Shown: positions 13,611-59,404 of the stretch, one piece after another | Layout of the letters: every line of letters begins with the position of its first letter | Position numbering within the stretch: position 1 is the first letter of the stretch | Source: Alphaproteobacteria bacterium | GTDB taxonomy: Bacteria > Pseudomonadota > Alphaproteobacteria > Rs-D84 | Direction: 5' to 3' | Assembly: GCA_017629245.1 (NCBI GenBank) | Contig: JAGBXO010000007.1 | Location: 14,100 to 78,099 of the forward strand | Length of the DNA: 64,000 nt | Notes under the pieces: generated by a model | What the model saw: only the letters and a program-made list of their open reading frames with translations | What the model was told of the DNA's origin: nothing | The model's database searches: none | Position numbers and translations under genes: made by a program

Positions 13611-13638
13611 TTGACAAAATATGCTTCGGGGATATAAT
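13611..13638 (+). promoter_or_regulatory. Consensus sigma70 promoter (TTGACA-N16-TATAAT) for the nucleotidyltransferase/phosphoesterase pair
   Basis: TTGACA at 13611-13616 and TATAAT at 13633-13638 with a 16-nt spacer. The predicted TSS is ~13645, only 2-3 nt before the ATG at 13648, implying a leaderless or very short leader. Confidence 0.55.
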
Positions 13639-13647
13639 CAATCCACA

Positions 13648-14580
13648 ATGAAAAATCAATATAGTATTTTTGCAGGTATGACAAACCCCACCATGGCGGA
13701 AAAAGATTTCCTGGAATGTGCAATCTTGGACAAATTATTCCAAGACAAATTCTTTGCAGAAAATTTTGTGTTTGCGGGTGGCGGCTCTATTACCAAATCT
13801 TATGCATTCAGTCCGCGCATCAGCCAAGACTTAGATCTGGCATACACTGCCTTTTGCGACATTCCTGACACCCCGTCACGAAACCAGTTAAAGAAATTTC
13901 GCAAACGGTTTAAGACATTTATTTTTGAAACAATTGCTCCCCGAATAACCTCTCTGATTGCCGCGGACAATAAATACCAAATACTGACAGATCGCGAACA
14001 CTGCGTAAAGAGCAACAAAGAACAATGGCTGTCGTCACCTACAATCCACATATTGTATAAATCTGCATTTTATAACAGGACCGAAGAAATCCACATTGAA
14101 ATTATTCCGCGTAAATATTCACCGTCTGCGCTATCTTTTCATTCTGTAATGCCGTATGCATTACCTGGTGCCCGGTTTGGACATATTCCAACCGTTGCCT
14201 ATGAACAAACATTCTGGGACAAGGTTTTTGCCTTGCATTCAAACGCTTTGTCGGCACATCCGCATACAGATGCCTTTTATTCACGACACTATTTTGATGT
14301 TGCCAGACTGGCCGGTCGTGTTGATTTAGACAAAACCGCACATATGCTGTCAGATATTGCGCAGTACCAGGAAAAATACACAACCAAGCGACTGGGAACA
14401 GACATATCGCCCTGCGATGCTATTTTGATTCCATCAGATCCGGTTTTGTATGCCCTGGAATCAGACTATGACAATCTTGCACAGCAAACATTTATCGCAC
14501 CAAAAACTTCATGGAATTTAATTGTTCAGCGTCTTGAACAATTATCCCAAGACTTAAAGCAAATCGCATATCAAAGGTGA
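13648..14580 (+). CDS. AbiEii/AbiGii-like (DUF1814) Pol-beta-superfamily nucleotidyltransferase
   Basis: The Pol-beta NTase motif is present (FVFAGGGSITKSYAFSPRISQDLDLAY fits hG[GS]-x9-13-DhDh). The ~310 aa length is typical of AbiEii/MenT toxins. The start could instead be the ATG at 13678; the ORF-track start at 13621 lies inside the promoter. Confidence 0.65.
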   Translation: MKNQYSIFAGMTNPTMAEKDFLECAILDKLFQDKFFAENFVFAGGGSITKSYAFSPRISQDLDLAYTAFCDIPDTPSRNQLKKFRKRFKTFIFETIAPRITSLIAADNKYQILTDREHCVKSNKEQWLSSPTIHILYKSAFYNRTEEIHIEIIPRKYSPSALSFHSVMPYALPGARFGHIPTVAYEQTFWDKVFALHSNALSAHPHTDAFYSRHYFDVARLAGRVDLDKTAHMLSDIAQYQEKYTTKRLGTDISPCDAILIPSDPVLYALESDYDNLAQQTFIAPKTSWNLIVQRLEQLSQDLKQIAYQR

Positions 14581-24390: not shown

Positions 24391-24476
24391 AGAAAAACCA
24401 GCATTTTTGCACAAGTAAAAAATTCCCCAATCACAGAAATTATTTTTTTGACAGTATGTTTTACTATCCGCCAATC

Positions 24477-26744: not shown

Positions 26745-26768
26745 CCCGCCACATGGGCGGGATTTTTC
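26745..26768. terminator. Bidirectional terminator immediately after the 26768..27964 gene
   Basis: CCCGCC-acatg-GGCGGG hairpin; a T-run on the plus strand overlaps the minus-strand stop codon and an A-run precedes it. Confidence 0.5.
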
Positions 26769-27964
26769 TATTCCGTTTGTTGATCAGCTTTTTTTCCTGT
26801 GACACATTCTTTATATTCATCTGGCGATGTTTTGGCCCAACATTGCCCATCTACATTATTTTTATACGAAACCTTATTTCGACTTTTGCCATACTGTAAA
26901 TCTAAATGTGAATACCCAATGGCAGTCTTACAAACTCCCGTTTTCACATCAAAATATTGCCCCGTCTGATTACAGACCACACATGTTCCATCATTTGGAT
27001 TTGGTCCGCCCTTAACACTGGTTGCACAATCTTGACACTCATCGGTTTTACCTGCCGCAGGAAATGCTTTGGTTTGATCTCTACAGACATAAATATAACA
27101 ATTGCGTTCCTTATCCTTTCGTTTTATATGCAGCGAAGAATTATACCCACTTTCTGGAAAGTTTCCACAGAACACAGGATTTATATCTTCGATTGCTTCT
27201 GCTGTTGCAGGCACACAATCTGTATTTGTATCGTTCGGCAAATATCCCTGTTTACATAACAATTTTCTTGTATTCGACACCAAATCTGCACGTTGAACCC
27301 ATGAATTAATACCCTTCCAGCCATCCCACTGACAACCAACCTGAACCGGTGCGGCCAGAATACCATTCTTCAAAAACTTCACAGCCCCTAAAATAATATC
27401 TTGTTCTCCATGATCGTTCCACACCCCAGCATACCAATAATAATTCCAGGTATTAAAACCATAAATATTCGATTCATAATTACTTATACGGCCACCAGAT
27501 GTCTTTTTCGTGATACCACTACGCAAAGAAGAAATAACATCGCCAACATCTGTTGTTTCCACAGAAAACATTTTTTCACATCCTGGACCAGAATATCCCT
27601 TTTCGCATAACCATACACATTTGCTGTCTTGCCAACCATTTGGACGATGATACAGTGTCCAAGACCAATGATTCTTTCTTGCGTTTGCACACTGAATTTG
27701 ATAGGGGCAAAAAAATCCACCATGTTCCGCTATCTGTTCTGCAACAACCGCGACAATTGCGCCTTCATCACCATAAGTGCCTATAGATGCAAAACCTAAT
27801 GAGCCATCAATAATAAATTCACCAGCGCTTCCCATACTGTTGACGTCTTTTTGTCCCGAATATCCCCATGCTGTGGCCATGTTACTATCTACATGATTTA
27901 TCGCCCAACCAGCACTTGTCCCAAGCGTCGCAAAGAATACTGAAGCATACAAGTATTTTTTCAT
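26768..27964 (-). CDS. Secreted cysteine-rich protein (398 aa) with EGF-like CxC..GY.G..C motif
   Basis: Signal peptide MKKYLYASVFFATLGTSAGWA. It carries 20+ Cys, including CVWLCEKGYSGPGCE which resembles the EGF consensus. No other known domain. Confidence 0.5.
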   Translation of the reverse strand: MKKYLYASVFFATLGTSAGWAINHVDSNMATAWGYSGQKDVNSMGSAGEFIIDGSLGFASIGTYGDEGAIVAVVAEQIAEHGGFFCPYQIQCANARKNHWSWTLYHRPNGWQDSKCVWLCEKGYSGPGCEKMFSVETTDVGDVISSLRSGITKKTSGGRISNYESNIYGFNTWNYYWYAGVWNDHGEQDIILGAVKFLKNGILAAPVQVGCQWDGWKGINSWVQRADLVSNTRKLLCKQGYLPNDTNTDCVPATAEAIEDINPVFCGNFPESGYNSSLHIKRKDKERNCYIYVCRDQTKAFPAAGKTDECQDCATSVKGGPNPNDGTCVVCNQTGQYFDVKTGVCKTAIGYSHLDLQYGKSRNKVSYKNNVDGQCWAKTSPDEYKECVTGKKADQQTE

Positions 27965-27967
27965 ATT

Positions 27968-30508
27968 TTAATTCTCCGGTGCCACATAGCATATGCCATT
28001 CTCATAATACCCATTCCCCAGCAACTTGCACTGGTTTTCATACCATTCGGCACTAAATTCACATTCATCCTTGTCCGCATTATATTTTGCCAACAATTTC
28101 GTCTCTGTTGTACCACCATCTACATCTTCTTTATCTGATGTGACGTTCGAATTGTATGCCTCGCACAATACGCGGGTTGTGTTTTGTACACACTTGCCCC
28201 ATGATGCGGCACCTTTGGTTGTGCTGCTGCTGCCGGTGCCATATATCGCGTTATAGAAGCCAACCAAATCCGGCGCGTTCAGCAATCCTCTGTTCGACTC
28301 TTTGTTTTCTGCAACAATGTCTGCATCGACCCAATAACCATCCAATTCTTCGCATTTTTCAATAAATACATATTCCATTTGCCATTTTATTTCATTAATC
28401 GCCTGGTCAATCTTGTTCAATGTATCCAATGCTATCGCCCCATTCGCTGTCAGTGCCTGACGCGCCGCCGCCGCTGTTGCATTGCTTGCAATCTGCGGTT
28501 TTGTCTTCGTTGGATCTGCACATGAATTTGCCGCAAACTTATAGACATTAATACTCAATTCATCCAAACCCCACTGACGGCAATTCCATGGGAACGCCTC
28601 ACCACTGCCATCTGTTGGTGTGCACCATTCCTTTAACTGGGTTTCAATTGCTGCATCGCAACCTTCGGCAACACGAACATTATCAACAGTATCAACAAAC
28701 GCCAACAATGATGTCAAACCGCATCTTGTTGATGCTGTTCCATCTGCCTTCTGGGTTCCTGCCGTCAAACGGCCATTTCCATCAAATTCGCAGCCTGTCG
28801 TATCACCATACAGCGATGCACACGCAATAACCTTGTCTTCACACATTGCCTTGGCTGCATATGCCGACATCGCCCCCGATGTTTTAGCGGTTGTATCATC
28901 AAAGCTTTTCAATGCACTGGACTGAGTGTCATAACATTCTTTCATTGTATTAACGCACGACATCTTGACTTCTTCAATCTTGGCATCTTGCGCCTGGGCG
29001 ATTTCAATTAACGCCATGCGTTTGAATTCTGTCCACACATTATCGGCAATACCACGGCACGAATCCAACGCAGTTTCTGCATACATTTTCTTAGAATCCA
29101 AGAACTGATCAAATTTTGGATTCTGCCCCAGAACATCCATATCTCCACCGGCCCCGGCCAGGGTAATAATGTTTGTCAATTCAAACAAACGCTGGGAATA
29201 AATCGGTTCACCCGTTGACTGATTTACATATGCGCCACTGTAATCCAAACAACGTTTATAATTCGGACCGCACGCTGTATCTGCCAACAAAGCGGCCTGG
29301 ACCTTGGCGATACATTCGTTTACATCACGCGAATTATGCGCACGGTATTCTTCCAGACGGGCATCACGCAGAATTTTTTCCGCCTGGCGAACGGTTGACA
29401 TAACCTGTTCACGTTTTTTATTAACATTTTTTTCATATGCGTTACAATCCTGAGAAATCATGATATTATACGCACTGGTCGCCATGTTCAGAACCGCATT
29501 GCTTTCACAATTTTCCTTAATTAACTGAACGCACTGCTTATTAGATTCATTATACAATGCCTGACCTTCTAATGTGGTCAAATCTACACCGCCACCGGTG
29601 CTGAATATAGAACCACTGTCAAACGGATCCGCACCACCTTCGCCCCAAACATCGCCGATATCGGTTGAAAAATCTAATGATATAACCCCCAAAGACGACG
29701 AAGAAGTAGTTGCACTTGCCGATGTCGCTTTCTTTTTTCCAGACAACAAATCACCAATTTCATTCAAAATGCTTTGCGCCCCACTGGTGTCGTTTTTAAT
29801 CGCCGCTTCACCAACTGTTGCAGTGTACATTGCATTAACTTCGGCCGCTGTCTTATCAACTGCATTTAAATTATTGTCTTCAAACTTCTGCAACAGAACC
29901 TTAGCCTGATCCATGGCCCATTCCATATCACGGAATTCCGTAAATCTGGAACTGCAGAAACAACGGCGATATGTATCATTTGCATTTGCACAAAACTGAT
30001 CCATACATGTTGCATATGCATCACGACATTCTGAATACCCACCACCAATCTTGGAAATATCTGTAAACACCGCCGTTGCACGTGCACGCGACGCCGCACG
30101 GGCCAGACCACTGATTACACTGGCTGCACTGCGTGCTGCATGTCCACCAACACTTGGTATTGTGGCACGCCCCGCATTAACCACACCACTGCGCGCCATT
30201 GTCGCACTGCGCCCCGGTTGCACACGAGCATTCGTTGCACTGCGCGCGGTTTTCTTTTTATCCATCGAAACATCACGTGATGCAACCGACACATCACGAC
30301 GCACGGCACTGCGCGAAGTATTAGCCACAACATTCGCATTAGCCCCAGCACCACGTTTAACCACACGGCCATCGGCACGCCCGGCAACAACATTGGCCGC
30401 TGTCGCACTGCGCGGATTTGGTGCCTGATCAGCACGCGCCAAACCGACACCGCCAACCGTCGCTAAAACCGCAGAAAACTTACAAAAATGTGTTAATATA
30501 TGTTTCAC
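27968..30508 (-). CDS. Large secreted protein (846 aa) with N-terminal Ala/Arg/Ser-rich low-complexity region and Cys-containing C-terminal region
   Basis: Signal peptide (MKHILTHFCKFSAVLATVGGVGLARA). Residues 30-160 are a low-complexity R/A/S/V region. The remainder has ~30 Cys and no recognised motif. A 3-nt gap separates it from the downstream gene. Confidence 0.5.
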   Translation of the reverse strand: MKHILTHFCKFSAVLATVGGVGLARADQAPNPRSATAANVVAGRADGRVVKRGAGANANVVANTSRSAVRRDVSVASRDVSMDKKKTARSATNARVQPGRSATMARSGVVNAGRATIPSVGGHAARSAASVISGLARAASRARATAVFTDISKIGGGYSECRDAYATCMDQFCANANDTYRRCFCSSRFTEFRDMEWAMDQAKVLLQKFEDNNLNAVDKTAAEVNAMYTATVGEAAIKNDTSGAQSILNEIGDLLSGKKKATSASATTSSSSLGVISLDFSTDIGDVWGEGGADPFDSGSIFSTGGGVDLTTLEGQALYNESNKQCVQLIKENCESNAVLNMATSAYNIMISQDCNAYEKNVNKKREQVMSTVRQAEKILRDARLEEYRAHNSRDVNECIAKVQAALLADTACGPNYKRCLDYSGAYVNQSTGEPIYSQRLFELTNIITLAGAGGDMDVLGQNPKFDQFLDSKKMYAETALDSCRGIADNVWTEFKRMALIEIAQAQDAKIEEVKMSCVNTMKECYDTQSSALKSFDDTTAKTSGAMSAYAAKAMCEDKVIACASLYGDTTGCEFDGNGRLTAGTQKADGTASTRCGLTSLLAFVDTVDNVRVAEGCDAAIETQLKEWCTPTDGSGEAFPWNCRQWGLDELSINVYKFAANSCADPTKTKPQIASNATAAAARQALTANGAIALDTLNKIDQAINEIKWQMEYVFIEKCEELDGYWVDADIVAENKESNRGLLNAPDLVGFYNAIYGTGSSSTTKGAASWGKCVQNTTRVLCEAYNSNVTSDKEDVDGGTTETKLLAKYNADKDECEFSAEWYENQCKLLGNGYYENGICYVAPEN

Positions 30509-38654: not shown

Positions 38655-38684
38655 ACAATCCCTTAAATGGGATTTTTTTATAAC

Positions 38685-38732: not shown

Positions 38733-41700
38733 TTACCAAGACATATACCCTGGTTCACACGTGCGTTCACACTTCTTGCGTGATGCATTCCACTTTCGCG
38801 ATCCTGTTTCATCTGAATAGGTGTCGCATATCAGAACACATTCGTTGTTCTCCAGTGTGTACAATTCACCTTCATACATACAGGTCGCAATCTCACAACC
38901 TTCAACATAACTGCTAGCCGCCAACTCACCACCCGCGCTGTACATATTGTTGCAGCGTCCACACTGCTTCCACAGTTCATTTGTTTGGCTGCGGTCATTC
39001 GTATAGCCTGGGTCACACTTGGTTGCGACACAATCGCCCCATGTATTCTTCTTGTGATTCCATTCGCGTACACCAATACCATGTTCTAATTCACAGACCT
39101 GTTCATCTGCCTGACATGTATTTGCCCCCAGATGATAACCATCCGCACATTCTGTGATTACACATTCACCAAACGCTTGCTTTGAGGCATCCCAGACACG
39201 CGTCGCCGCAACAGCATTAGGAACAGAACATTCTACGGTATCAACTTCGCACGCCTGGCCATTTGGATGGAATCCACTGACACACGACTCTACAACACAG
39301 TTGCCACCATCTTTCTTGTATGACAATGCATTTTCGCGTGCACATGCCTGACATTTACCACCAACCATTTCATAGTTATAGTTACATGATCTTTCTACAC
39401 ATGTTCCATTAACTATGTCGCACGGATTCTTGGTAACAGACATACCGTCAAATCTGCACTGTACCGGATAATTTTCAGTACCAGACACAGGAATCGCTGT
39501 TCCATAAGTGATATCATACGCATCACATTTCAGATAGCAGTCCGAAATCTCTGACGAGCCCGCCGGTGCGAACTTATGTGTTCCCTTTGTCAGATCTGAA
39601 CACAGCTGTGGTTTGCCGCGTTCAATATCCGGTGTACAGATATTATTTGCTGGACATACCTTACATACACCATCACTCAAAGTGTACCCTGGACGACACA
39701 ATGTTATTTCACATGTATCTGTACCGTTTGCATAGTAGTCACGACCGAGCATTTCTTGGGCACTGCTTGCCAAAGAACAACTTGTATAGCACTGTTGTGC
39801 ACTTTCTGCCCCAGAATCAGATAACGCATACCCATCTGGACAGACTTCACGTCCACCTGTGCCAACACGCATTATCTTGACACCACCTGCGCAATATCCA
39901 CCTGTCGCACAATCAACCATTCCCATACCAGCCGTTGCAACATACTTACCCGCTGTTGTAATCAGATAACAATTATCAACAGACCCATTCTGCGCTGCAG
40001 ACTTTGTATAAACACCATCTGTCAATTCAGAACATTTATGTGGCGCGCCATTATCGTTGGCAGGGTCGCACACATTATCCGCAGGACATACCTTACATGC
40101 GCCACCCACAACTGTAAAACCAGCCTCACATAATGTAGCCTCACATGTATCAGCAACATCTGCGCCATAGTAATCTTTACCACTCATCGCTATCGCATTT
40201 TCCGTCAACGCACAACGCTGATAACATTGTGTTTCTGCACTTGCGCCAACAACTGATGAATAGCCCATACCAAACGCTGAACATGCCGAATTACCACCTG
40301 TGGCTGTATACACAACCTTTACACCACCCAAACAGTAATCGCCAACCTTACATGCTACTTCGCCTTGACCCGCAACCGCAACATACTTACCTGGTGTAGT
40401 TATCGTATAACAGCCATCTATTGACGAAGTGTTCTCTAACGACAAGGTATACTTACCATTGGTCAATTCAGAACATGTATGCGGTTTGCCACCATCATAG
40501 TTTGGATCGCACACGCTATTGGCCGGACAGCTGCCACATGTACCATTCGACAAGACAAATCCTGTCTCACACTGCACCGCCTCACATGTATCAACACCTG
40601 TTCCATAGAAGTCTTTTCCAGTCATTTGTGTAGCATGTGAATACATTGCACAGTTTGTATAGCACTGATTTTTCTCAGACGCCCCCGTTCCAGACATTGC
40701 ATAATCCAATGGGCACGCTTCACGACCACCTGTGCCTGTGCGATTTACATCAACGCCACCCGCACAGTATCCACCTGCCAGACAGTCAACTTCGCCTTGA
40801 CCCGCAGTCGCAACATACTTGCCCGCCGTCGTGGTCAGATAACAATTATCAACTGTACCTGTCTGTGCCGCAGACTTTGTATAAACTCCACCTGTCAACT
40901 CAGAACATTTATGTGGCGCGCCATTATCGTTGGCAGGGTCGCACACATTATCCGCAGGACATACCTTACATGCGCCACCTGCGACTGTAAAACCAGCCTC
41001 ACATAATGTAGCCACACATGTATCCGCAACATCTGCGCCATAGTAATCTTTACCACTCATCGCTATCGCATTTTCCGTCAACGCACAACTTTCTGTATAG
41101 CACATATCCGCGGTCTTTGTACCAGCAGCCGACATACTATATTTACCACCAGCCAGTGTCTTACACGCTGTATTTCCACCAACACCACTTACCATAACCT
41201 TGGTGCCACCCGGACAGAAATCACCGGCCTTACATTCAACTTCACCCTTGCCAGCGGTCGCAACATACTTACCTGCGGTCGTAATCAGATAACATTCTGA
41301 CGCACCAGCTTCCGAAGTATATCCCGCAGGGCAGGTTACACAACTGCTTTTCTGACCATAATATACATTATGTTCGGTCTTGTATGTTCCTGCATTACAT
41401 GTTGCAAACGCATCACCATTCCAGTACTTACCATCCGCAACCACCACATAACACTTGTCAGGTGTACTTGCCCCACTGGCTGTCACGCCACTTTGCCATG
41501 CAACATCATCTGACAAATCAGCACACGATAAGTTACCACCAGAATTGCCATACGATACCTTTATATCACCCGGACAATAATAAGGCACAACACAGGTCTT
41601 AACAACGTTATCCATAATGTATTTGCCTGCCACTGTCAAAGTATAGCAATCATCAATACTATCGCTATTTGCTGCACTGCTTGCAAACACTCCATCTGTT

Positions 41701-44700
41701 TCGGTTGCACAACTACGCTTCGTACCATTGCTACAATAACTGCCCGCTTCACAAGCTGTACAACTGCTGGTATTCCCATAAGAAACCAAAACCGCATCCG
41801 ATGTATAGTTTCCTGCTGGACAAACCGTCATTTCCGCCCCTTTTGCCGTAGCCAGATAAGAGCCCTTAGGTACAGAAATCTGACATTGTGATTCATCACT
41901 GTACCCTGTACCACCATCATCATAGCCACTTGGACATTCGGTACGACAACCTGCAACACCAATTGTTACCTTGCCTTCACCAGGACAATAATACCCCTTT
42001 GGACATGTCACAAAAGAAGTCCCATTATAGTACATACCCGGCTGACACATCTCAACATTTATTACCCATTTTGCGTACAAGGTCTTATTTGCCGTGCACC
42101 CGCCCGCTGGGATTGATGATATCGCACTGCCTGCGGTTGCAACATTATCATACCAACCTTCAAAGCGGTAATCCTCACGCGAGATCTGGGCTGCCGTTGG
42201 CAATACGATTACCCCCGTTTCAACAGTACATTGTGAAACCTGGGTATAGTTACTACCTATCTTGCCCCCATTTGTTTCCAATGTTAAACCGTATACGACC
42301 GCATCACAAACAGGATTATATGCACCATTATTCTGCAAATTATCGTAATTAGACTTACATTCCGTTGCATAAGTACAAACCCCTAACGGTGCTGTCAAAT
42401 TACATTTTGCACCATTACCCGCAGCACAGGCTGTACACGCCTTCCACACAGGATACAGCGTAACCGTTGTATTGTTAACCTGTGTCAAATTAACAACCTT
42501 CTGCCCATCGGTATATTCCGGCGTTGCTGCATTTGGCTCTGTCGCCCATCCCATGAACTGACGATCATTCGTTGCCGAAGTAAAGGCATTCGGAGTCAAA
42601 TTCAATGGTTCATCACAGGTATGAGTAACACTTTCCATAACCCCTGAAGCACCTGCGGCATTGTATTTAACTGTATATGTATTCACATTCCACCATGCAT
42701 ACAATGTAGTATCTGCGGATACATCTGGCGCATCCAATATAGCCCCCATTGCATCTATCACACGAACACCACCTTCCAATGCCGTTCTCTTGGTATAATA
42801 TCCTGCGAAGGTATAACATGGACGCACCGGAACCGCAACCTTAGAAATCTTATCCGTTGCTGCAGCATTACTATACCAGCCAGTATTATACTTCTCGTAT
42901 ATAGTATTATTTGCTGTTTCGCCACCATTGACATCCAATGTAAAGGTGTAAACATGTGGTGTACACAGTTCCTCTGGCGCAGACGCCGAACCATCTGTCG
43001 GATCTATATCAGCACTCTCATTCTTATCATAGCCCGTATTACATGTGAACGATGAATCAGGGCAAACATATGCAGCTGCAGAACCAGGCAACGGCTTATC
43101 AGTACCATAGAACAAATATCCACCGCCTAATACAGAGTGAGTTGAATTATACGTACATGTTCCCATTTCTTCCAATGGACAGATCGGTGCAGTACATGGC
43201 AAATCAACAGACTTAAAGCACGCTGTTGCCCCTGTATTAGAATCTGCAACATATTTTACCAACGAAGGATACGATGTTTTGAACGAACCATCGCCCAACG
43301 TCGTACATGATACACAACTACCATCTTCAATATCTCCTGTTGGAGTATAGTATGTGCCAGCCTTACAAGATACCTTGATTATATCACAATAGGTACTATC
43401 AGAACTTCCTGGTGCAGCCACACACATATCAGGATTTGCTTTATAAGTCACTCCCCTAAATCTAAGATCATTGTATTGGCAATTGTTCGCGCCCTTGGCT
43501 TCACATTCTGCATCATCATGTGAACACCAGCATTTCGGTACTTCTTTATAACATTGTCCTTCTTCAGATGCGCCAGCAACACTATTTGGATAATCTGACG
43601 GACATTCTGCGACCGGACATGTTTCAGATGTTTCCGTGCTCCATTTTCCACCGGCACAATACTTGCCTGCAGGACATTCCTCTACTTGACCAGACTCTTT
43701 GTTATAGTATGTACCTGGTGCACATTCACCATCTGCCATCCATTGTGCAAACAATGTAATATCACTATCGATATCCCACTTTGCAGGTACTCCATTCATA
43801 TTGTAATACTGTACACCACCTGTCTGTGCAGAGTAGTACCCCTTGAATATAAAGTCTGTCTTCGTTGGCATAACAGCATCTGGCAACACCTCGCCAAATG
43901 TTGCAATCACGGACGCGGTACCACCGACACCACCATTTTTATCAAATGTCACAGTATATGTATTAGCAGTCCACTTAGCATACAATTTGTAATCTGACAA
44001 ACATGCACCCTTTGCAATCACTGTAATCGGACTTCCTGTAAAATCAGAATTCTGATACCAACCACCAAATGTATAGCCCGTTTTTGTTGGCTTTGGCAGG
44101 GTTATATCCGCCGTTTCAACAGTACATGAGCTTGGTGTTACACTGCTGCCTCCAACAATTGTGCCACCATTTGCATTCATTGATATATTGTATTTTACAA
44201 CCGTACAGGTTTCTGCACCTGTTTGCCCATTCGTTGAATATCCATCCATACATGTTGCACAACTATCTTTGTCTCCATACAAAACAGGATGTTCTGGCAA
44301 TACAGTATTTTCTGGGCAGACCTTAACTTCTGCTGCATCAAAATCAAAATAATGCCCCGCCTGGATAGATGTTACACAATTGCTAGGAGTAGACAGACCT
44401 ATTTTACCATGTCCATTATCCTTCCATTCTAAGCCAGCATACTCTAACTGAGCGCATGTTTTCGCGCCACCTGTTGAACCATAATACACTGTCACACCAC
44501 CCGGACAATAATACCCAGCACTACAGGTAACTTGTTTTGCATTCTCTAAAGCAACATAATTACCCGGCGTTGTTACCAAATAACACTGATTTTCTGCAGT
44601 TGCTCCTTTGTTGCTGGTATACCCAATCGCACACGAATATGCGACACCTGCAATGCAATAACTGCCTTCAGGACATATTGCAGGTGCACTCACACCCGAC

Positions 44701-45632
44701 ACACAAACTTCCCCATTGGCACAGGCATACATTCCAGCCGCCTCAGCACCAACATATTCTTCCCCACCTGGGCAGTAATTACCTGCTTCGCACACAAGAA
44801 CTTCTCTGCCGTTCCAATAATAACCAGACGCCAACACCCCAGATTCTGGCACACACGATGCAGAACCTGCCTCTGAAGTATATCCTGCCTCACACGGTGT
44901 ACAAGCTGTCCCCGTTGTACCATATGCAACCAATCCCCCTTCACTGTAAGTGCCCGCTTCACATGTGCCAACAGAAATAGCTCCATCAACCCAATCTGCC
45001 GACTTCAAATAACTGCCTGCCGGCATAACAAATTCGCATTCGGCAATCGATACTGCAACAACATCACCATATGTTTTCAGCTGATAATCACCAATGGCAG
45101 GACAGGCGACCGCTCCATTGCCAATCGCCCCATCTTCTGTACGAAGATCAGCATAAATTTTACCACCCGGATAATAATACAAATGCCCTTCATTCGAGCT
45201 AACCCCTGTTGCAAAAGCGTTTTTCGCAACATCATAATATTGACCAGCCCCAACATTAGCAACAAAGCAATCTCCCTCCTCATCACTTTGCAATACACTA
45301 GAAGGGAAGTCTGTTGGACATTTTGTCGCTACAACCGCACCAGAAATACAATAAGAACCAGCTGGACACTCCATCTGTGCACATCCATCCTTCATATTAC
45401 CTTCACCAGGGCAGTAATAACCCGCCGGACACGGTTTTGCAACATTACCTTCATACGCATATCCTGCATCACAGCCATTGGCAGAATACAGTGCCGTAAA
45501 GGTCACATCTTTGGTATAGTTAAAGTTTTCTATCACTTCTCCAGGCAAATATGTCACAGCGAACGATTCGGATGCGCCAAAAACAGACGCAAAAAAAGCC
45601 AGAATTCCTGATATTAAGTGCTTCAATTTCAT
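38733..45632 (-). CDS. Giant (2299 aa) secreted cysteine-rich surface protein with Listeria-Bacteroides (Flg_new) repeats and tandem ~145-aa Cys-rich modules
   Basis: Clean signal peptide MKLKHLISGILAFFASVFGASESFA. At least 6 Flg_new-type repeats (YTVTFDKNGG…GYTFGGWY…LYAKW). Repeated modules …CY..TTxGKYVA.AGxGEVxCxxGxYCxGG… are paralogous to the 17272..24390 protein. Confidence 0.65.
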   Translation of the reverse strand: MKLKHLISGILAFFASVFGASESFAVTYLPGEVIENFNYTKDVTFTALYSANGCDAGYAYEGNVAKPCPAGYYCPGEGNMKDGCAQMECPAGSYCISGAVVATKCPTDFPSSVLQSDEEGDCFVANVGAGQYYDVAKNAFATGVSSNEGHLYYYPGGKIYADLRTEDGAIGNGAVACPAIGDYQLKTYGDVVAVSIAECEFVMPAGSYLKSADWVDGAISVGTCEAGTYSEGGLVAYGTTGTACTPCEAGYTSEAGSASCVPESGVLASGYYWNGREVLVCEAGNYCPGGEEYVGAEAAGMYACANGEVCVSGVSAPAICPEGSYCIAGVAYSCAIGYTSNKGATAENQCYLVTTPGNYVALENAKQVTCSAGYYCPGGVTVYYGSTGGAKTCAQLEYAGLEWKDNGHGKIGLSTPSNCVTSIQAGHYFDFDAAEVKVCPENTVLPEHPVLYGDKDSCATCMDGYSTNGQTGAETCTVVKYNISMNANGGTIVGGSSVTPSSCTVETADITLPKPTKTGYTFGGWYQNSDFTGSPITVIAKGACLSDYKLYAKWTANTYTVTFDKNGGVGGTASVIATFGEVLPDAVMPTKTDFIFKGYYSAQTGGVQYYNMNGVPAKWDIDSDITLFAQWMADGECAPGTYYNKESGQVEECPAGKYCAGGKWSTETSETCPVAECPSDYPNSVAGASEEGQCYKEVPKCWCSHDDAECEAKGANNCQYNDLRFRGVTYKANPDMCVAAPGSSDSTYCDIIKVSCKAGTYYTPTGDIEDGSCVSCTTLGDGSFKTSYPSLVKYVADSNTGATACFKSVDLPCTAPICPLEEMGTCTYNSTHSVLGGGYLFYGTDKPLPGSAAAYVCPDSSFTCNTGYDKNESADIDPTDGSASAPEELCTPHVYTFTLDVNGGETANNTIYEKYNTGWYSNAAATDKISKVAVPVRPCYTFAGYYTKRTALEGGVRVIDAMGAILDAPDVSADTTLYAWWNVNTYTVKYNAAGASGVMESVTHTCDEPLNLTPNAFTSATNDRQFMGWATEPNAATPEYTDGQKVVNLTQVNNTTVTLYPVWKACTACAAGNGAKCNLTAPLGVCTYATECKSNYDNLQNNGAYNPVCDAVVYGLTLETNGGKIGSNYTQVSQCTVETGVIVLPTAAQISREDYRFEGWYDNVATAGSAISSIPAGGCTANKTLYAKWVINVEMCQPGMYYNGTSFVTCPKGYYCPGEGKVTIGVAGCRTECPSGYDDGGTGYSDESQCQISVPKGSYLATAKGAEMTVCPAGNYTSDAVLVSYGNTSSCTACEAGSYCSNGTKRSCATETDGVFASSAANSDSIDDCYTLTVAGKYIMDNVVKTCVVPYYCPGDIKVSYGNSGGNLSCADLSDDVAWQSGVTASGASTPDKCYVVVADGKYWNGDAFATCNAGTYKTEHNVYYGQKSSCVTCPAGYTSEAGASECYLITTAGKYVATAGKGEVECKAGDFCPGGTKVMVSGVGGNTACKTLAGGKYSMSAAGTKTADMCYTESCALTENAIAMSGKDYYGADVADTCVATLCEAGFTVAGGACKVCPADNVCDPANDNGAPHKCSELTGGVYTKSAAQTGTVDNCYLTTTAGKYVATAGQGEVDCLAGGYCAGGVDVNRTGTGGREACPLDYAMSGTGASEKNQCYTNCAMYSHATQMTGKDFYGTGVDTCEAVQCETGFVLSNGTCGSCPANSVCDPNYDGGKPHTCSELTNGKYTLSLENTSSIDGCYTITTPGKYVAVAGQGEVACKVGDYCLGGVKVVYTATGGNSACSAFGMGYSSVVGASAETQCYQRCALTENAIAMSGKDYYGADVADTCEATLCEAGFTVVGGACKVCPADNVCDPANDNGAPHKCSELTDGVYTKSAAQNGSVDNCYLITTAGKYVATAGMGMVDCATGGYCAGGVKIMRVGTGGREVCPDGYALSDSGAESAQQCYTSCSLASSAQEMLGRDYYANGTDTCEITLCRPGYTLSDGVCKVCPANNICTPDIERGKPQLCSDLTKGTHKFAPAGSSEISDCYLKCDAYDITYGTAIPVSGTENYPVQCRFDGMSVTKNPCDIVNGTCVERSCNYNYEMVGGKCQACARENALSYKKDGGNCVVESCVSGFHPNGQACEVDTVECSVPNAVAATRVWDASKQAFGECVITECADGYHLGANTCQADEQVCELEHGIGVREWNHKKNTWGDCVATKCDPGYTNDRSQTNELWKQCGRCNNMYSAGGELAASSYVEGCEIATCMYEGELYTLENNECVLICDTYSDETGSRKWNASRKKCERTCEPGYMSW
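39925..41090 (-). repeat. Near-identical ~290-bp direct DNA repeats (approx. 39925-40215 and 40800-41090) within the giant gene, separated by a diverged copy
   Basis: Long exact matches, e.g. cagaacatttatgtggcgcgccattatcgttggcagggtcgcacacattatccgcaggacataccttacatgcgccacc and catctgcgccatagtaatctttaccactcatcgctatcgcattttccgtcaacgcacaac, occur in both copies. They encode CALTENAIAMSGKDYYGADVADTC…KVCPADNVCDPANDNGAPHKCSELT… twice. Confidence 0.6.
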
Positions 45633-45771
45633 GTACTTACCCTCTCATTAATATGAATCCTAGAAAAAAAACAGCCTTTTGGGCAAGTGAAAAATAATAA
45701 AAAAAACTTTATTTTATCGGCTGTATATACAGATATGACAAACCATTTCTTAGGCAACCCAAAGACACAAC

Positions 45772-46890
45772 TTAACGTTGTGCTTTTTTTGTCAATTCTT
45801 CAAACATTTCTTTAAATAAAATATGCGCACGTTCTAATGCACCCGCACGCCATCTAACATCTGATGGATACCAACTTTCCGTTAAATTGGCCCAAGTTTG
45901 TGGATTAATTTTTCCATGATTAATCAAATCATAGCGTGCATCACCCATATCCATTCTTTTGTAAATTGGTGACATAATTGGAAACTCGCCAGTACCAATT
46001 TCAAAGTCGGCTGTATATACAGGCAATTTTGGCGTTGCATATCGTGCCTCCAGACAATCAACCAAATCGCCCAACAGGGTTGGTCCATTTACCGCTAACT
46101 CATCAGAAACAATTTCCGTACCACGCAACATATCTGAAAAATACCGCGTATTTTCATGCTGTTTTGGATGCGACACCAACAAATGAGATGATACGTATGC
46201 ACGTTTTCTGTTAAATCGCCCCAGACCTGTATGTAAACCAATAGAAGTCAACGATTTTGCACCACACATAAGATTATCATATATACTTAACGCCATTTTA
46301 TTTTCTGTCATAGGCGCCATACCGCCATAGAACAACCCATACGGATGTTTATACTGCCCATAACTAATCGCACTCCATACACCATCACGCAAATGTTTCT
46401 GACGAAATTCTTTAATTTGGTTTTTCTTTTTAATTTTGTCTGGTCTTGACAACAGCAAATCATGTGCCAAATCGTACTTTGGATTTTGGGGCAGGGCAGA
46501 TTTATTATCAAAATCAACCCCAAAGTTTCTATTTAAATCAACCAAACCACCATGCGTCTTGTCCATAACTTCACGCATGCGGTTTTGCATTCCCCAACCA
46601 TTGATAACATGCACCAAAACAATTTTATATTCATCTAATAATTTTGTCGGCAAATTATCCGCCATCTTATCCAGGAACATATTTTGCGCAGCGCTGCCAA
46701 AATAGCCTTCAATTCCATGCACACCTGAATTAATCACAACAAGATTTTCGCCATTACCAATTGTCAGATATGGAATATCGTATTCATGCCCTGAAACAAC
46801 ACACCACCGCAACACACCACGACCTTGTGCATTTTTAATAAATTTATCCGTTGCCTGATACCAATTTTCTGAATAGTAATCTTGAAACAT
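45772..46890 (-). CDS. M14-like zinc carboxypeptidase / succinylglutamate-desuccinylase-fold protein (DUF2817-like)
   Basis: VINSGVHGIEGYFGS resembles the HxxE zinc-binding motif of the M14/AstE-AspA fold; 372 aa. Confidence 0.45.
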   Translation of the reverse strand: MFQDYYSENWYQATDKFIKNAQGRGVLRWCVVSGHEYDIPYLTIGNGENLVVINSGVHGIEGYFGSAAQNMFLDKMADNLPTKLLDEYKIVLVHVINGWGMQNRMREVMDKTHGGLVDLNRNFGVDFDNKSALPQNPKYDLAHDLLLSRPDKIKKKNQIKEFRQKHLRDGVWSAISYGQYKHPYGLFYGGMAPMTENKMALSIYDNLMCGAKSLTSIGLHTGLGRFNRKRAYVSSHLLVSHPKQHENTRYFSDMLRGTEIVSDELAVNGPTLLGDLVDCLEARYATPKLPVYTADFEIGTGEFPIMSPIYKRMDMGDARYDLINHGKINPQTWANLTESWYPSDVRWRAGALERAHILFKEMFEELTKKAQR

Positions 46891-46932: not shown

Positions 46933-47727
46933 CTACATAACTTTACCCTGGGTTGGATAAAAGGTTAGTTGAATTTTTTCCCACTTTGAAAATTCTTTTT
47001 CTGGCAACATACGCAATGGCTGACAGCGATTTATAGCATCCCGAATTGTCCCCAAGACATAAGCAAACGCAGCATCTGTTTCTTCACGTGCCTGGGATTC
47101 AAACCAAACATCACGCACTGTACCGTTCTTTCGCATTGTCAAATGTGCAACAGCACGAATATCGGCTATATCTGGACGCGCTGAATCAATCACCCAACAA
47201 CGCGTCATTGCCACACGCAACGCATCAACAACAGAAACCGTCAACGTTCTGTCCAACGACAAAACCTCGCGATTGACACGAACAACCTTGCGTTTTTTCG
47301 GAACAGGAGCATTTTCAACCGGTTTTGATTCTTGTTTTTTTTCCTGTTCCTTTTTATCTTCTATCTTTTTTTCTTCGGGTGCTTCTTCTTGTTTCTTTTC
47401 AGGTTCTTCAACCAATGTTGGTTGTTTTATCTCTTCTGGCTCAGTCTCCGATATTTCTTCTTTTTTATCAAGTTTGGCATCCGGCACAGGGGTTGGCTCT
47501 CCTGGCTTTGATTCAGCAACATTACCAACATTATACAGTTTTGTTTCATCTCCCGTCACAACAACATCATTTAAATCAATTTCCATAATTTGAATTCTGT
47601 CTGGCGCGACCATTTTTGCACGATTAACCACCACCGCAAAAGAAGTAATTAAAACCGCCACCAAAACCAGGTGCCCCGCGACAGAAATCAAAATATTCTC
47701 TGATGAAAATCGGTTAAATTTCGCCAT
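46933..47727 (-). CDS. tolA: TolA-like protein
   Basis: N-terminal TM anchor, a Glu/Lys/Pro-rich central linker and a TolA/TonB-like C-terminal domain. Its position after tolQ-tolR supports the call. Confidence 0.6.
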   Translation of the reverse strand: MAKFNRFSSENILISVAGHLVLVAVLITSFAVVVNRAKMVAPDRIQIMEIDLNDVVVTGDETKLYNVGNVAESKPGEPTPVPDAKLDKKEEISETEPEEIKQPTLVEEPEKKQEEAPEEKKIEDKKEQEKKQESKPVENAPVPKKRKVVRVNREVLSLDRTLTVSVVDALRVAMTRCWVIDSARPDIADIRAVAHLTMRKNGTVRDVWFESQAREETDAAFAYVLGTIRDAINRCQPLRMLPEKEFSKWEKIQLTFYPTQGKVM

Positions 47728-47732
47728 TTATT

Positions 47733-48131
47733 TTATTCCGGTTGCGTACGCAGTCCAACCTTTTGAAAACCCGAATCTTTCAATTTACCCATCATGCTCA
47801 TTACCGCGCCATAATCCGCATGTGTATCTCCACTTATCATAATGGTTAAGTTTGGATTTTCCCCACGCATTGCAATTGCACGTTTTACAATTTCATCCCT
47901 TGGCAATTCCATCTCTGACAGAAAGTATCGCCCACGCGAATCCACACTGATTTGAATTGCATGATCATTACCTGTCATTGCCGATGCACCTGCGCGCGGC
48001 AATTCCAAATCAATCCCTGTTGTCATCATAGGTGTCGTCACCATAAATACCGCCAACAGCACCGTCATAACGTCAATCATTGGCGTTAATTGAATTGAAC
48101 TGTCAGTATTTCTGCGTCTTAGTCTGGACAT
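47733..48131 (-). CDS. tolR: TolR/ExbD biopolymer transport protein
   Basis: IQLTPMIDVMTVLLAVFMV TM helix and the ExbD fold; 132 aa. Confidence 0.75.
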   Translation of the reverse strand: MSRLRRRNTDSSIQLTPMIDVMTVLLAVFMVTTPMMTTGIDLELPRAGASAMTGNDHAIQISVDSRGRYFLSEMELPRDEIVKRAIAMRGENPNLTIMISGDTHADYGAVMSMMGKLKDSGFQKVGLRTQPE

Positions 48132-48142
48132 CTATCACACCA

Positions 48143-48622
48143 TTATTTTTGATTTTTATGTTCTTTACATGCACATTCCAGTCGTTCATACAAATCATCT
48201 GATTTTCTTGTAAAATACTGGTGAGCAATCGCCGCCGGAATCGCCGCAATCAACCCCAGCGCAGTCGTACCCAATGCAACCGCCAAACCTGGCGCAATCA
48301 CACCAATACTGACCGATTGATTAACACCAATCGCCGCAAAAGAATCCATAACCCCCCAAACAGTTCCAAACAAACCAATAAATGGCGAAATATACGCAAC
48401 CATCGACAAAAACCACAGATTTTTATCAAACGGACGAATAAAGACATCAATATTTTCATCTGGCTTCATTTTCATGGGAGTTCTTTTTTGTGCCCGCCAC
48501 AGGCGAATCTTCTCAACAATTACAGCCCATGAAACGACACTAAAAATTACCAAAACGATTGACACAAACACTGTCAACCAATCACCCGTAAACAAACTTA
48601 ACAAAGAAAAACTTCCTTCCAT
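48143..48622 (-). CDS. tolQ: TolQ/ExbB/MotA-family proton channel (short form, 159 aa)
   Basis: Three TM helices with the conserved C-terminal helices (PFIGLFGTVWGVM…APGLAVALGTTALGLIAAIPA). Confidence 0.7.
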   Translation of the reverse strand: MEGSFSLLSLFTGDWLTVFVSIVLVIFSVVSWAVIVEKIRLWRAQKRTPMKMKPDENIDVFIRPFDKNLWFLSMVAYISPFIGLFGTVWGVMDSFAAIGVNQSVSIGVIAPGLAVALGTTALGLIAAIPAAIAHQYFTRKSDDLYERLECACKEHKNQK

Positions 48623-48646
48623 CTCTCTAACCCTTTTTATCTAAAA

Positions 48647-49024
48647 TTAAACTAAACCCGTTATAAATTCCGCAGGTATCCGCTTTGGGCGCATATCACC
48701 CCCCAAGTACGCAACCTTAAGATTAATTATAGCACAAACGGCACCATCTTTCACGAACTTTTGTTCTATTCTAACAATTGCCGCTCCAACATCAACCATT
48801 TGCGTTTCAACCACAAATTCATCTGCTGCACGCAACGGTTGCAAATATTTGATATTCAACTCGCGAATAACAAACCCAACATCATCGCCAACCACAACAT
48901 GTCCACGCAACCAATTCATACGCGCACGTTCTGCAATTTCTAAGTATCGCGCATGATAAACAATCCCTTCGGCATCAGTATCCGCATACGCAATTGTAAA
49001 TGGGAAAACATGCGTTTTGTTCAC
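48647..49024 (-). CDS. ybgC: YbgC-type acyl-CoA thioesterase (4HBT family)
   Basis: FTIAYADTDAEGIVYHARYLEIAERARMNWL hot-dog-fold motif, located upstream of tolQ. Confidence 0.75.
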   Translation of the reverse strand: MNKTHVFPFTIAYADTDAEGIVYHARYLEIAERARMNWLRGHVVVGDDVGFVIRELNIKYLQPLRAADEFVVETQMVDVGAAIVRIEQKFVKDGAVCAIINLKVAYLGGDMRPKRIPAEFITGLV

Positions 49025-49026
49025 CT

Positions 49027-49452
49027 CTAATCCTCCACACTAATTTGTACACGCGCAGTACCAGAATTAATCATGTCTAATTTTTTCGCCGCCGCACGGG
49101 ACACATCAATAATGCGCCCCTTGGAAAACGGGCCACGGTCATTAATCACAACACTTACTCTTTTTCCATTTTCCAAATTTTTTACCAACAGCCGTGTCCC
49201 AAACGGTAATGTTTTATGCGCTGCAGTCATCTTGTTCTGATTGTATCGTTCACCACTGGCAGTTTTGCGACCATGAAACTTCTTCCCATACCAAGAAGCA
49301 ATACCTGTTTCATAATACCCATCTGCACTCTTCAACGGCTGATATGTTTTACCAGCAACTGTATATGAACGCGTATTATTCTTATAAACAACATCTGACG
49401 CACAACCAGCAACAATCAGCATAACAGCAAAGACAACGACAAACCTAAACAT
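49027..49452 (-). CDS. RlpA-like double-psi beta-barrel (DPBB) lipoprotein
   Basis: Signal peptide with lipobox (IVAGC), then GIASWYG…GRKTASGERY…MTAAHKTLPFGTRLLV…NDRGP. Confidence 0.7.
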   Translation of the reverse strand: MFRFVVVFAVMLIVAGCASDVVYKNNTRSYTVAGKTYQPLKSADGYYETGIASWYGKKFHGRKTASGERYNQNKMTAAHKTLPFGTRLLVKNLENGKRVSVVINDRGPFSKGRIIDVSRAAAKKLDMINSGTARVQISVED

Positions 49453-50442
49453 TTATTTTTCCAATCCCAAATGCCGATAGCCCGCATCCGTAATAACGCG
49501 CCCACGGGGTGTACGCTGAACAAAGCCTAATTGCATCAGATACGGCTCAATAACATCCTCTATCGTATCAGCGGGTTCCGATAACGCTGCTGCCAAATTC
49601 TCAATTCCAACTGGGCCACCGGCATAGAACTTGATAATCATATTCATGTATTCACGATCTATCTCATCCAAACCACATTCATCAATATGCAATTGAAACA
49701 AGGTGGTCTTAATCGTATCTGCAGTTATTTGATTTTTACCCAACGCCGTTGCAAAGTCACGTGCGCGTTTCAACAAGCGATTTGCAATACGGGGTGTACC
49801 ACGGGACGAACGCGCCAACATCAGTGCACCATCTGCATCAATCGGTGTTCCCAAAATATTTGCACTGCGCATAATAATCCGCGCCAAATCTTCTGGGGAA
49901 TAGAACGTCAGCCTTAAATCAATTCCAAATCGGTCACGCAACGGATTCGACAGCAAGCCCGTACGCGTTGTCGCCCCAACCAACGTAAACGGGGGCAGGT
50001 CAATACGCACACTTTTTGCGCTGGGACCTTCACCCAGCATAATATCCAACTTGAAATCTTCCATTGCAGAATACAAAACTTCTTCAATCGCCGTCGGCAA
50101 ACGATGAATTTCATCAATAAAAAGCACATCCATCGGTTCCAACGCTGTCAAAATAGCCGCCAAATCCCCTTGCTTGGTCAACATAGGTGCCGCTGTCGCC
50201 CGAAAGTTTGTTCCCAATTCATTTGCAACAATATGCGCCAGTGTTGTCTTACCCAACCCCGGGGGGCCATACAACAACACATGATCCATTGCCTCACCAC
50301 GCGAACGCGCACCAGAAACAAACACCGACAAATTTTGTTTTAAACTTTCATGCCCAATAAAGTCAGTCAATGACCGCGGACGAATTGTCGCTGCCATTTC
50401 ATCCGGGATATTCGCATCTAAAAAACGTTCTTTACTCTGCAT
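49453..50442 (-). CDS. ruvB: Holliday junction branch-migration ATPase RuvB
   Basis: Walker A ([22 protein letters not shown]) and sensor motifs; 329 aa. Confidence 0.9.
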
Positions 50443-59370: not shown

Positions 59371-59404
59371 AAAAAAGCGCCCAACAGGGCGCCTCTTTTT
59401 TTTT
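59371..59404. terminator. Bidirectional terminator between thyA and the 59403..61787 gene
   Basis: GCGCCC-aaca-GGGCGC hairpin flanked by A6 and T9. Confidence 0.55.

Follow-up and report, generated by a model that had tools for sequence, protein, structure and literature searches.

A giant cysteine-rich protein of Rs-D84 gut alphaproteobacteria with a conserved C-terminal domain and converting repeat units

What might a gut bacterium with a reduced genome do with a cysteine-rich, repetitive protein of 2299 amino acids? This question is raised by positions 38733-45632 of a 64,000-nucleotide stretch of DNA (the window) from contig JAGBXO010000007.1 of assembly GCA_017629245.1, which derives from an alphaproteobacterium of the Candidatus Enterousia/order Rs-D84 group. 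On the minus strand, which carries all features of the gene described below, this region is a single unbroken open reading frame (ORF) with an ATG start and 2299 codons, followed by a stop codon (38733-38735). The encoded protein (the target) has 157 cysteines (6.8% of its residues), which are spread over nearly the full length except for the segments formed by Flg_new repeats. It is a real, uncharacterized, and rather unusual member of the class of giant repetitive bacterial surface proteins, and has already been deposited under an automatic name. Its most interesting element is the C-terminal domain (CTD). Both this domain and the organismal context were absent from an earlier account made from the letters of the DNA (the sequence-only reading).

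The gene and the family defined by its C-terminal domain

The sequence-only reading had raised the worry that the repeats in this gene are an assembly artifact. Public records provide an answer: 26.9 kb of the window are identical to an ENA metagenome contig, the exact 2299-residue protein is recorded on 4 contigs, and a 99.9% identical variant is present on 3 further contigs. Therefore, the ORF is not a one-off assembly product. The protein is identical to NCBI MBO5739906.1, whose title, 'MAG: InlB B-repeat-containing protein [Alphaproteobacteria bacterium]', was assigned automatically.

The last ~266 residues (aa 2034-2299) form a Cys-rich domain that ends in G[YF]xxW and was delimited by alignment, profile search, and structure modeling; on the DNA, the domain is placed at 38736-39539 (aa 2032-2299). 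This CTD is present in 77 of the 120 best homologs, and in 75 of them the match ends no more than 5 residues from the C terminus, whatever precedes it. An alignment of 27 sequences (A1) reveals 24 invariant Cys residues in the domain. When 1.84 billion cluster representatives were searched with the CTD profile, 760, 457, and 281 proteins were recovered at E values of at most 1e-3, 1e-10, and 1e-30, respectively, and nearly all of these matches are full-length and located at the extreme C terminus of proteins of up to 4444 residues. The domain matches no family in Pfam or NCBIfam, and a profile search against PDB sequences returned nothing. An AlphaFold2 model with a predicted local distance difference test (pLDDT) score of 92.3 is all-beta and depicts an elongated array of Cys-rich beta-hairpins, for which there are just weak furin-like or EGF-like matches.

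Five proteins (P0126, P0133, P0215, P0239, and P0241) carry 5-17 stretches that match the CTD profile, with the best one located internally (profile positions ~45-185). A sub-module is present in 7-17 internal copies in a few proteins. Therefore, the CTD is itself built of a hairpin module that can be repeated, C-x4-C-x2-G[YF]-x5-7-C, and this motif also occurs in the second half of the tandem unit described below.

The GTDB representative genomes contain 162 CTD loci, nearly all in gut metagenome-assembled genomes named Candidatus Enterousia, Alphaproteobacteria, or Rickettsiales, and the hosts are human, chicken, roe deer, sheep, goat, buffalo, and cattle. Three loci (L046, L052, and L055) are in GTDB records labeled Bacteroides fragilis, Clostridia, and Muribaculaceae, and their CTD genes are 54-58% identical; the contigs are probably of the Enterousia type and mis-binned, and not true occurrences outside Alphaproteobacteria. 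CTD genes are found in two or more unrelated chromosomal slots. In 33 loci the gene is followed by one for an FAD flavoprotein, which points to a second conserved slot besides the one next to secA that the target occupies. Some genomes have two giant CTD genes, which are sometimes adjacent (L056/L067, both on CALXLG010000010.1; L021/L035; L024/L028; L026/L037). The domain thus defines an unnamed family of giant proteins of the Enterousia type, and the target has its 24 Cys residues, terminal location, G[YF]xxW ending, and signal-bearing N terminus.

Gene conversion and cassette turnover within the gene

Four tandem Cys-rich units of ~146 residues (39540-41294) were recognized by BLAST comparison of the chunked protein against itself and by comparison with orthologs. 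Unit u1 spans aa 1447-1596 (40845-41294), u2 spans aa 1597-1740 (40413-40844), u3 spans aa 1741-1887 (39972-40412), and u4 spans aa 1888-2031 (39540-39971). The first part of each unit is a CY..TT.GKYV...C.AG.YC.GG module, and the second part reads CA...NA..MSGRDYYG...DTC....C..G[FY]......C..CP...VC.P. Before chunking, a whole-protein BLASTP self-comparison gave no off-diagonal high-scoring segment pairs. Tandem Repeats Finder reported only an 18-bp repeat with 2 copies, the ~441-bp units being too diverged. Among the four units, 1 and 3 are the most similar pair.

The sequence-only reading described two stretches of ~290 bp in this array as almost identical, with a diverged copy between them, and attributed the pattern to recent duplication or gene conversion. 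The offset between the two stretches is 873 bp (875 in that account), and the 291-bp interval as a whole is only 91.4% identical, with 25 mismatches. However, a shorter core of 217 bp is indeed near-identical: 40000-40216 in unit 3 (aa ~1806-1878) and 40873-41089 in unit 1 (aa ~1515-1587) agree at 96.3%, with 8 mismatches and a longest exact run of 80 bp. Identity falls to 50-65% outside this core, and the intervening unit is ~53% identical within the tract, as the description of a diverged middle copy had implied.

The origin of this tract becomes apparent upon comparison with P0002, the closest relative, which is 86% identical to the target from aa 477 on. The P0002 gene resides in the same chromosomal slot (tolQ/tolR-like genes, the 264-aa ORF, DUF2817, the giant gene, secA, dnaE), and its four units are positional orthologs of the four units of the target, with nucleotide identities of 84, 93, 83, and 85%. 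Units 1 and 3 of the target differ at 5 of 190 positions inside the tract versus 87 of 251 outside (Fisher p = 7e-19), whereas the same columns in P0002 hold 61 mismatches among 190. Third codon positions in the tract are identical at 60 of 63 sites in the target and at 33 of 63 in the ortholog. Overall, units 1 and 3 are 79% identical in the target and 66% identical in P0002.

Resemblance along the tract also forms a two-way mosaic. Over the first half, unit 3 of the target resembles unit 1 of P0002 (82% versus 60-69%), and over the second half, unit 1 of the target resembles unit 3 of P0002 (82-89% versus 69-73%). Furthermore, in each of two strain variants of the same 90% cluster, P0122 and P0125, units 1 and 3 agree fully over the 75-residue tract, whose sequence nevertheless differs from one variant to the other (PANDNGAPHKC versus PAKDNGAPYTC). 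The orthologous units, the third-position identity, the mosaic, and the strain co-variation together argue for gene conversion rather than recent duplication. They demonstrate repeated, bidirectional intragenic conversion between units 1 and 3, an ongoing case of concerted evolution. A recent duplication of the identical tract was rejected given the positional orthologs in P0002, whose units 1 and 3 are diverged.

A second form of variation affects the other end of the protein. Exactly aa 54-264 are missing, in frame, from three strain variants whose identity over aa 263-2299 is ~97%. This 211-residue cassette (44841-45473) is located in the N-terminal Cys-rich region and outside of the tandem array, and the indel junctions have no direct repeats or obvious microhomology. 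Larger differences are evident between species. The first ~476 residues of the target are replaced in P0002 and are common to P0005 at 46-69% identity. Proteins P0001-P0011 have 4, 4, 5, 4, 3, 4, 2, 2, 2, 1, and 1 units, respectively, and 5 to 9 Flg_new repeats. The repeat expansion and contraction that had been proposed is therefore borne out between species (1-5 units, 5-9 Flg_new), but at the strain level it is limited to the indel of the 211-residue cassette, and we saw no polymorphism in unit number inside a strain population. We also considered whether the N-terminal cassette had been acquired recently from the second giant gene of the window and rejected this, as the N termini of relatives are only 33-50% identical to that gene in the best alignments.

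In every pairwise comparison, conservation peaks in the CTD (96, 86, 85, 77, 79, 79, 69, 74, and 52%) and is lowest in the N-terminal Cys-rich region (28-49%, with partial coverage). This region (aa 53-478; 44199-45476), which relatives match at 28-46% identity over part of its length, is the most variable part of the protein. Sequence comparisons reveal a gene that is conserved yet quickly diversifying, with a gradient from a constant C terminus to a variable N terminus.

Domain content, predicted export signal, and chromosomal neighborhood

A Pfam search of the whole protein matched PF09479 (Flg_new) in 5 stretches at 110.8 bits against a cutoff of 27, and NCBIfam matched TIGR02543 (List_Bact_rpt) at 60.1 bits against a cutoff of 20.95. 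A custom hidden Markov model, run with filters off, resolved five copies. Repeats 1-2 occupy aa 481-554 and 558-631 (aa 481-631; 43740-44192; found by Pfam, NCBIfam, and the custom model), repeats 3-4 occupy aa 894-981 and 985-1063 (aa 894-1063; 42444-42953; Pfam and the custom model), and repeat 5 occupies aa 1113-1189 (42066-42296; Pfam and the custom model). The sequence-only reading had counted at least 6 copies. Its family assignment is significant at the scores given above, but a sixth repeat was rejected because the unfiltered model yields five copies only. With five repeats well above threshold, the target resembles Flg_new/Listeria-Bacteroides repeat proteins, and the NCBI pipeline named it accordingly. 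However, the repeats span only ~390 of 2299 residues (~17%), and the name ignores the ~1700 Cys-rich residues and the CTD that define its family.

Pfam and NCBIfam searches of the whole protein and of eight isolated Cys-rich segments gave nothing significant besides Flg_new, with cEGF, Lustrin_cystein, TNFR_ELAPOR1, and PF07699 (Ephrin_rec_like) all below threshold. The middle Cys-rich module (aa 636-890; 42963-43727) is conserved across the family and has no database match. Cys-rich region 3 (aa 1195-1446; 41295-42050) contains C.AG.YCPG and C..C.AGY.S..GAS.C modules and, in the domain scans, gives the best sub-threshold signals for PF07699 and TNFR_ELAPOR1. The Cys motifs that had been quoted from the protein are present, and one of them, CY..TT.GKYV, occurs six times (aa 350, 1329, 1447, 1597, 1741, and 1888).

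These modules had been likened to ephrin-receptor, GCC2_GCC3, and TNFR repeats. In Pfam, the whole protein has no PF07699 match at E values of 1 or less. The best isolated segment reaches 13.2 bits (E 0.08), below the membership cutoff of 23.1, other segments have no PF07699 match, and the scores for TNFR_ELAPOR1_6th are 12-14 bits against 33. GCC2_GCC3 is the former name of PF07699 and therefore adds no independent criterion.

The likeness is carried instead by homologs, which pass Pfam thresholds for PF07699, TNFR_ELAPOR1 (PF23091), and NCD3G (PF07562). The target has a C..G.Y....C..C spacing similar to that of these families and of TNFR cysteine-rich domains (CRDs). The homolog P0027, which aligns with aa 1234-2032 of the target (BLAST E 1e-32), matches PF07699 in 37 stretches (292 bits) and also matches NCD3G and TNFR_ELAPOR1, and P0016, a protein of the same CTD family, scores 36.8 bits for PF07699. 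A profile of 19 sequences of the ~146-residue unit (A2) compared by hhalign with a profile of the PF07699-positive P0027 repeats (A3) gave a probability of 91.8% and an E value of 7e-7. P0027, a distant homolog, has a prepilin-type methylation motif (N_methyl) at its N terminus and a single Flg_new repeat in addition to the 37 Ephrin_rec_like repeats; it is a pilin-like giant Cys-rich protein, probably of another lineage.

The structure model of unit u1 has a pLDDT of 96.5. Its only structural neighbors in a Foldseek search of the PDB are extracellular Cys-rich receptor domains (DcR3, DR6, and the EphA2/EphA4 CRD) and the mastigoneme filament protein of Chlamydomonas (PDB 8tx1, 9b4h, and 8wa2), all with scores weaker than E 1e-3 and none individually significant. 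The mastigoneme protein is eukaryotic and glycosylated and has no sequence relationship to the target. A profile search of the unit against PDB sequences gave chance-level matches only (fucoidan lyase, E 0.05). By fold and distant homology, the modules thus appear to have a real, albeit indirect, resemblance to the ephrin-receptor/TNFR class. They also differ from Ephrin_rec_like repeats in that the 146-residue unit adds a second hairpin module, CxxxxC.xG[FY]xxxxxxC..CP, which is outside any Pfam model, and in that the target is a bacterial giant protein and not a eukaryotic receptor. A literature search for bacterial Ephrin_rec_like or GCC2_GCC3 proteins, or for such giants in Enterousia, found nothing relevant.

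The N terminus reads MKLKH-LISGILAFFASVFGA-SESFA, followed by V, and has the classical n/h/c layout of a signal peptide, with K2 and K4, a hydrophobic core at aa 6-20, and an AxA-type site between SFA and V (aa 1-25; 45558-45632). The core is the sole strongly hydrophobic stretch in the protein, and the same layout recurs in the family members whose sequences were read. The Sec signal that had been noted earlier is therefore upheld by inspection and hydropathy, the methods on which the call was made, and by its conservation across the family. A post-signal motif (VTYLPGEVIENFNY..DVTFTALY; aa 26-52; 45477-45557) is conserved among relatives, and identity over aa 1-52 is 50-69% in P0002-P0007, but 43% in P0003. 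There is no LPXTG sequence with a hydrophobic segment and charged tail at the C terminus, which ends in CEPGYMSW, and no beta-barrel or lipobox is recognizable in the protein.

Consensus scans place a GAGAGGG ribosome-binding site 7 nucleotides 5' of the ATG, in an AT-rich intergenic region (45633-45771). Scans of the same kind predict a terminator-like hairpin for the upstream DUF2817 gene (45765-45783) and another, readable on both strands, ~60 nucleotides past the stop codon (38657-38674). The neighbors of the gene are housekeeping genes that include secA, dnaE, rsmH, iPGM, ruvB, dnaK, trigger factor, thyA, and the alphaproteobacterial regulator gcrA. GC content is unremarkable. GC skew is strongly and persistently negative (-0.15 to -0.30) over window positions 10000-52000, which coincides with nearly all genes being on the minus strand.

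A Tol-like cluster on the minus strand (46933-50442) includes ruvB, DPBB_1 (RlpA-like), 4HBT (ybgC-like), ExbB/TolQ-like, and ExbD/TolR-like genes and a 264-aa ORF that has no Pfam match; the DPBB_1, 4HBT, and ExbD assignments were taken from the identical contig L001. In place of tolB-pal, this cluster is followed by DUF2817 and the giant gene. Elsewhere in the window, a gene for an AbiEii-family nucleotidyltransferase toxin (type IV toxin-antitoxin/abortive infection) is present on the plus strand (13621-14580), in what is a strongly reduced genome. Four large ORFs of 846, 398, 794, and 641 residues (27968-30508, 26768-27964, 59403-61787, and 2133-4058) have no Pfam family or sub-threshold matches only, and may encode further lineage-specific envelope proteins.

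A second giant ORF of ~2360-2400 residues (17272-24474, minus strand) encodes 128 Cys residues and a signal-like N terminus, with its true start likely at MFRFLRF. Repeats of the form AGYYSTGGG...C are numerous in it, F5/8 type C is matched in two stretches, and PF07699 is matched weakly (20 bits). This protein has no CTD. It carries another conserved tail (...CGRKLHAGDNVIYLRS...FYGNMST...YSVVNDNQ) that is common to ~25 of 120 homologs, such as P0026, P0041, and P0100-P0119, and that looks like a second class of C-terminal module.

Proposed role and rival explanations

The genomes of Candidatus Enterousia are 0.75-1.0 Mb in size and lack the tricarboxylic acid cycle, respiration, and standard transporters, and dependence on a partner has been proposed (PMC12306168). 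Giant Cys-rich proteins are not mentioned in that report (PMC12306168). The function that we favor for the target, with moderate confidence, is that of a Sec-exported, disulfide-stabilized, giant modular protein of the cell surface or extracellular space of these bacteria. The N-terminal signal would carry the chain across the inner membrane, after which ~78 disulfides could lock ~1700 residues of beta-hairpin modules resembling TNFR and ephrin-receptor CRDs into a long, rigid, and probably protease-resistant rod, with the five Flg_new domains presumably interspersed along it. The CTD might serve as a constant base that anchors the protein to the envelope or that is recognized by an export or assembly machine. 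The N-terminal part, with its low conservation, would then form a variable tip, exposed for contact with a partner cell, with host mucus, or with glycans. The gene diversifies in the three ways observed here, namely cassette gain or loss, change in the number of units and Flg_new domains, and gene conversion between units 1 and 3. We infer a role as an adhesin or fiber that binds a host or partner through the N-terminal part and the Flg_new domains. Binding-type domains also occur in paralogs, including the F5/8 type C stretches in the second giant ORF and the F5/8-C and leucine-rich repeat (LRR) families among homologs.

Several known systems offer points of comparison. RTX adhesins of the type I secretion system (T1SS), such as LapA, SiiE, and MpIBP, and autotransporters of the type V secretion system are Cys-poor and are exported unfolded. 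The T1SS adhesins have a C-terminal signal and no Sec signal, and autotransporters end in a beta-barrel. The target shares with these giant Gram-negative adhesins a multi-thousand-residue repeat rod, variation in repeat number between relatives, and a presumed role in attachment, but differs from T1SS RTX adhesins in its Sec-type signal and 157 Cys residues. Pfam reveals neither an RTX/HemolysinCabind match nor a type V autotransporter domain in the target, and the C terminus is modeled as the hairpin array described above.

A functional analogy, and no more than that, can be drawn with the C-terminal domains of cargo proteins of the type IX secretion system (T9SS) in Bacteroidota, where one conserved extreme C-terminal domain is likewise found on many unrelated large secreted proteins. 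However, the CTD has 266 residues and is disulfide-rich, whereas the T9SS domains have ~80-100 residues and are immunoglobulin-like, and the host of the target is an alphaproteobacterium. The C terminus of the target has no Pfam or NCBIfam match to a T9SS domain of the Por_Secre_tail type, and no T9SS genes turned up, although whole genomes were not examined for them.

A further proposal, put forward tentatively and at rather low confidence, is that the CTD and the '...YYGNMT...YSV.DDSM' tail of the second giant gene are lineage-specific sorting or anchoring modules of an undescribed Rs-D84 surface-display system. Folded rods hundreds of nanometers long, rich in disulfides and resembling eukaryotic receptors, would be exported by this system and might act like mastigoneme hairs as tethers that hold these sub-1-Mb, transporter-poor bacteria to a partner cell or host surface.

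Three considerations weigh against assigning the target to the cell surface. Export, surface location, and binding are all deduced from sequence and structure models. Downstream of 80 CTD loci there is no conserved gene for a secretion or anchoring partner, and the recurrent neighbors are housekeeping genes (FAD flavoprotein, 33; SecA, 7). Finally, a folded, disulfide-rich protein of 2299 residues must cross the outer membrane, which the adjoining tolQ/tolR-like genes suggest the cell has, and the route and the mode of envelope attachment are the main gap in this account.

Some of the same features would suit protection rather than attachment. Coats made of VSPs or high-cysteine membrane proteins in Giardia, and the surface antigens of ciliates, provide analogs for a dense, protease-resistant, antigenically variable layer of Cys-rich rods whose variation would evade host immunity, phage, or proteases. 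The extreme Cys content, the TNFR/ephrin-CRD-like modules, the gut habitat, the cassette indels, the gene conversion, and the presence of several paralogs per genome, including the second giant gene in the window, are consistent with a coat of this kind. We nevertheless judge it unlikely, because the C terminus, unlike that of VSPs, has no membrane anchor or transmembrane segment, and because the loci seen have one to few CTD genes per genome instead of a large switching repertoire. The Flg_new, F5/8-C, and LRR-type domains of the family likewise favor binding.

Possession of a signal peptide with no recognizable anchor, whether LPXTG motif, beta-barrel, or lipobox, could also indicate that the protein is released from the cell as a soluble effector, toxin carrier, or scavenger of nutrients or metals. 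This seems improbable, however, given that the Pfam and NCBIfam scans reveal no enzymatic or toxin domain and that large size and rod-like repeats are typical of structural or adhesive proteins. In addition, polymorphic toxins vary at the C terminus, whereas here the C terminus is constant and the N terminus is variable.

It is very improbable that the protein remains unexposed as a structural component of the periplasm or spans the envelope internally. Fast N-terminal turnover, cassette indels between strains, and a number of repeats that changes among relatives are what exposed proteins typically show, and a rod of ~1700 residues would presumably far exceed the width of the periplasm. The neighboring envelope genes (tolQ/tolR-like and secA) and the fact that a Sec signal alone reaches only the periplasm in a diderm speak for this placement, but the neighborhood is otherwise one of housekeeping genes with no dedicated operon, and CTD genes are not confined to one slot. 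These last three explanations (coat, released factor, and internal envelope protein) fit the variation pattern and domain content less well than does a cell-surface or extracellular protein. An artifact, whether a repeat assembly that is collapsed or chimeric or a pseudogene in decay, is hardly credible even though short-read metagenome assemblies can mis-join repeats and the window comes from a k141 MEGAHIT-style contig, because the protein recurs on independent records that include 97% variants from other samples, full-length syntenic orthologs keep the same four units, the frame is unbroken across 6.9 kb, and the conversion tract co-varies between strains.

The gene provides a clean natural case of ongoing intragenic gene conversion with ortholog and strain controls. 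The two giant genes, at ~7 kb each, constitute 22% of the 64-kb window, which is a very large outlay for a small genome. The structural class of ephrin-receptor and TNFR modules is rare in bacteria. Uncultured members of Candidatus Enterousia and of the order Rs-D84 are widespread in the guts of humans, ruminants, horses, and chickens. The confidently modeled CTD, which has no known relative, the variable N-terminal tip, and the ephrin-receptor/TNFR-class modules may serve as experimental handles for these organisms.

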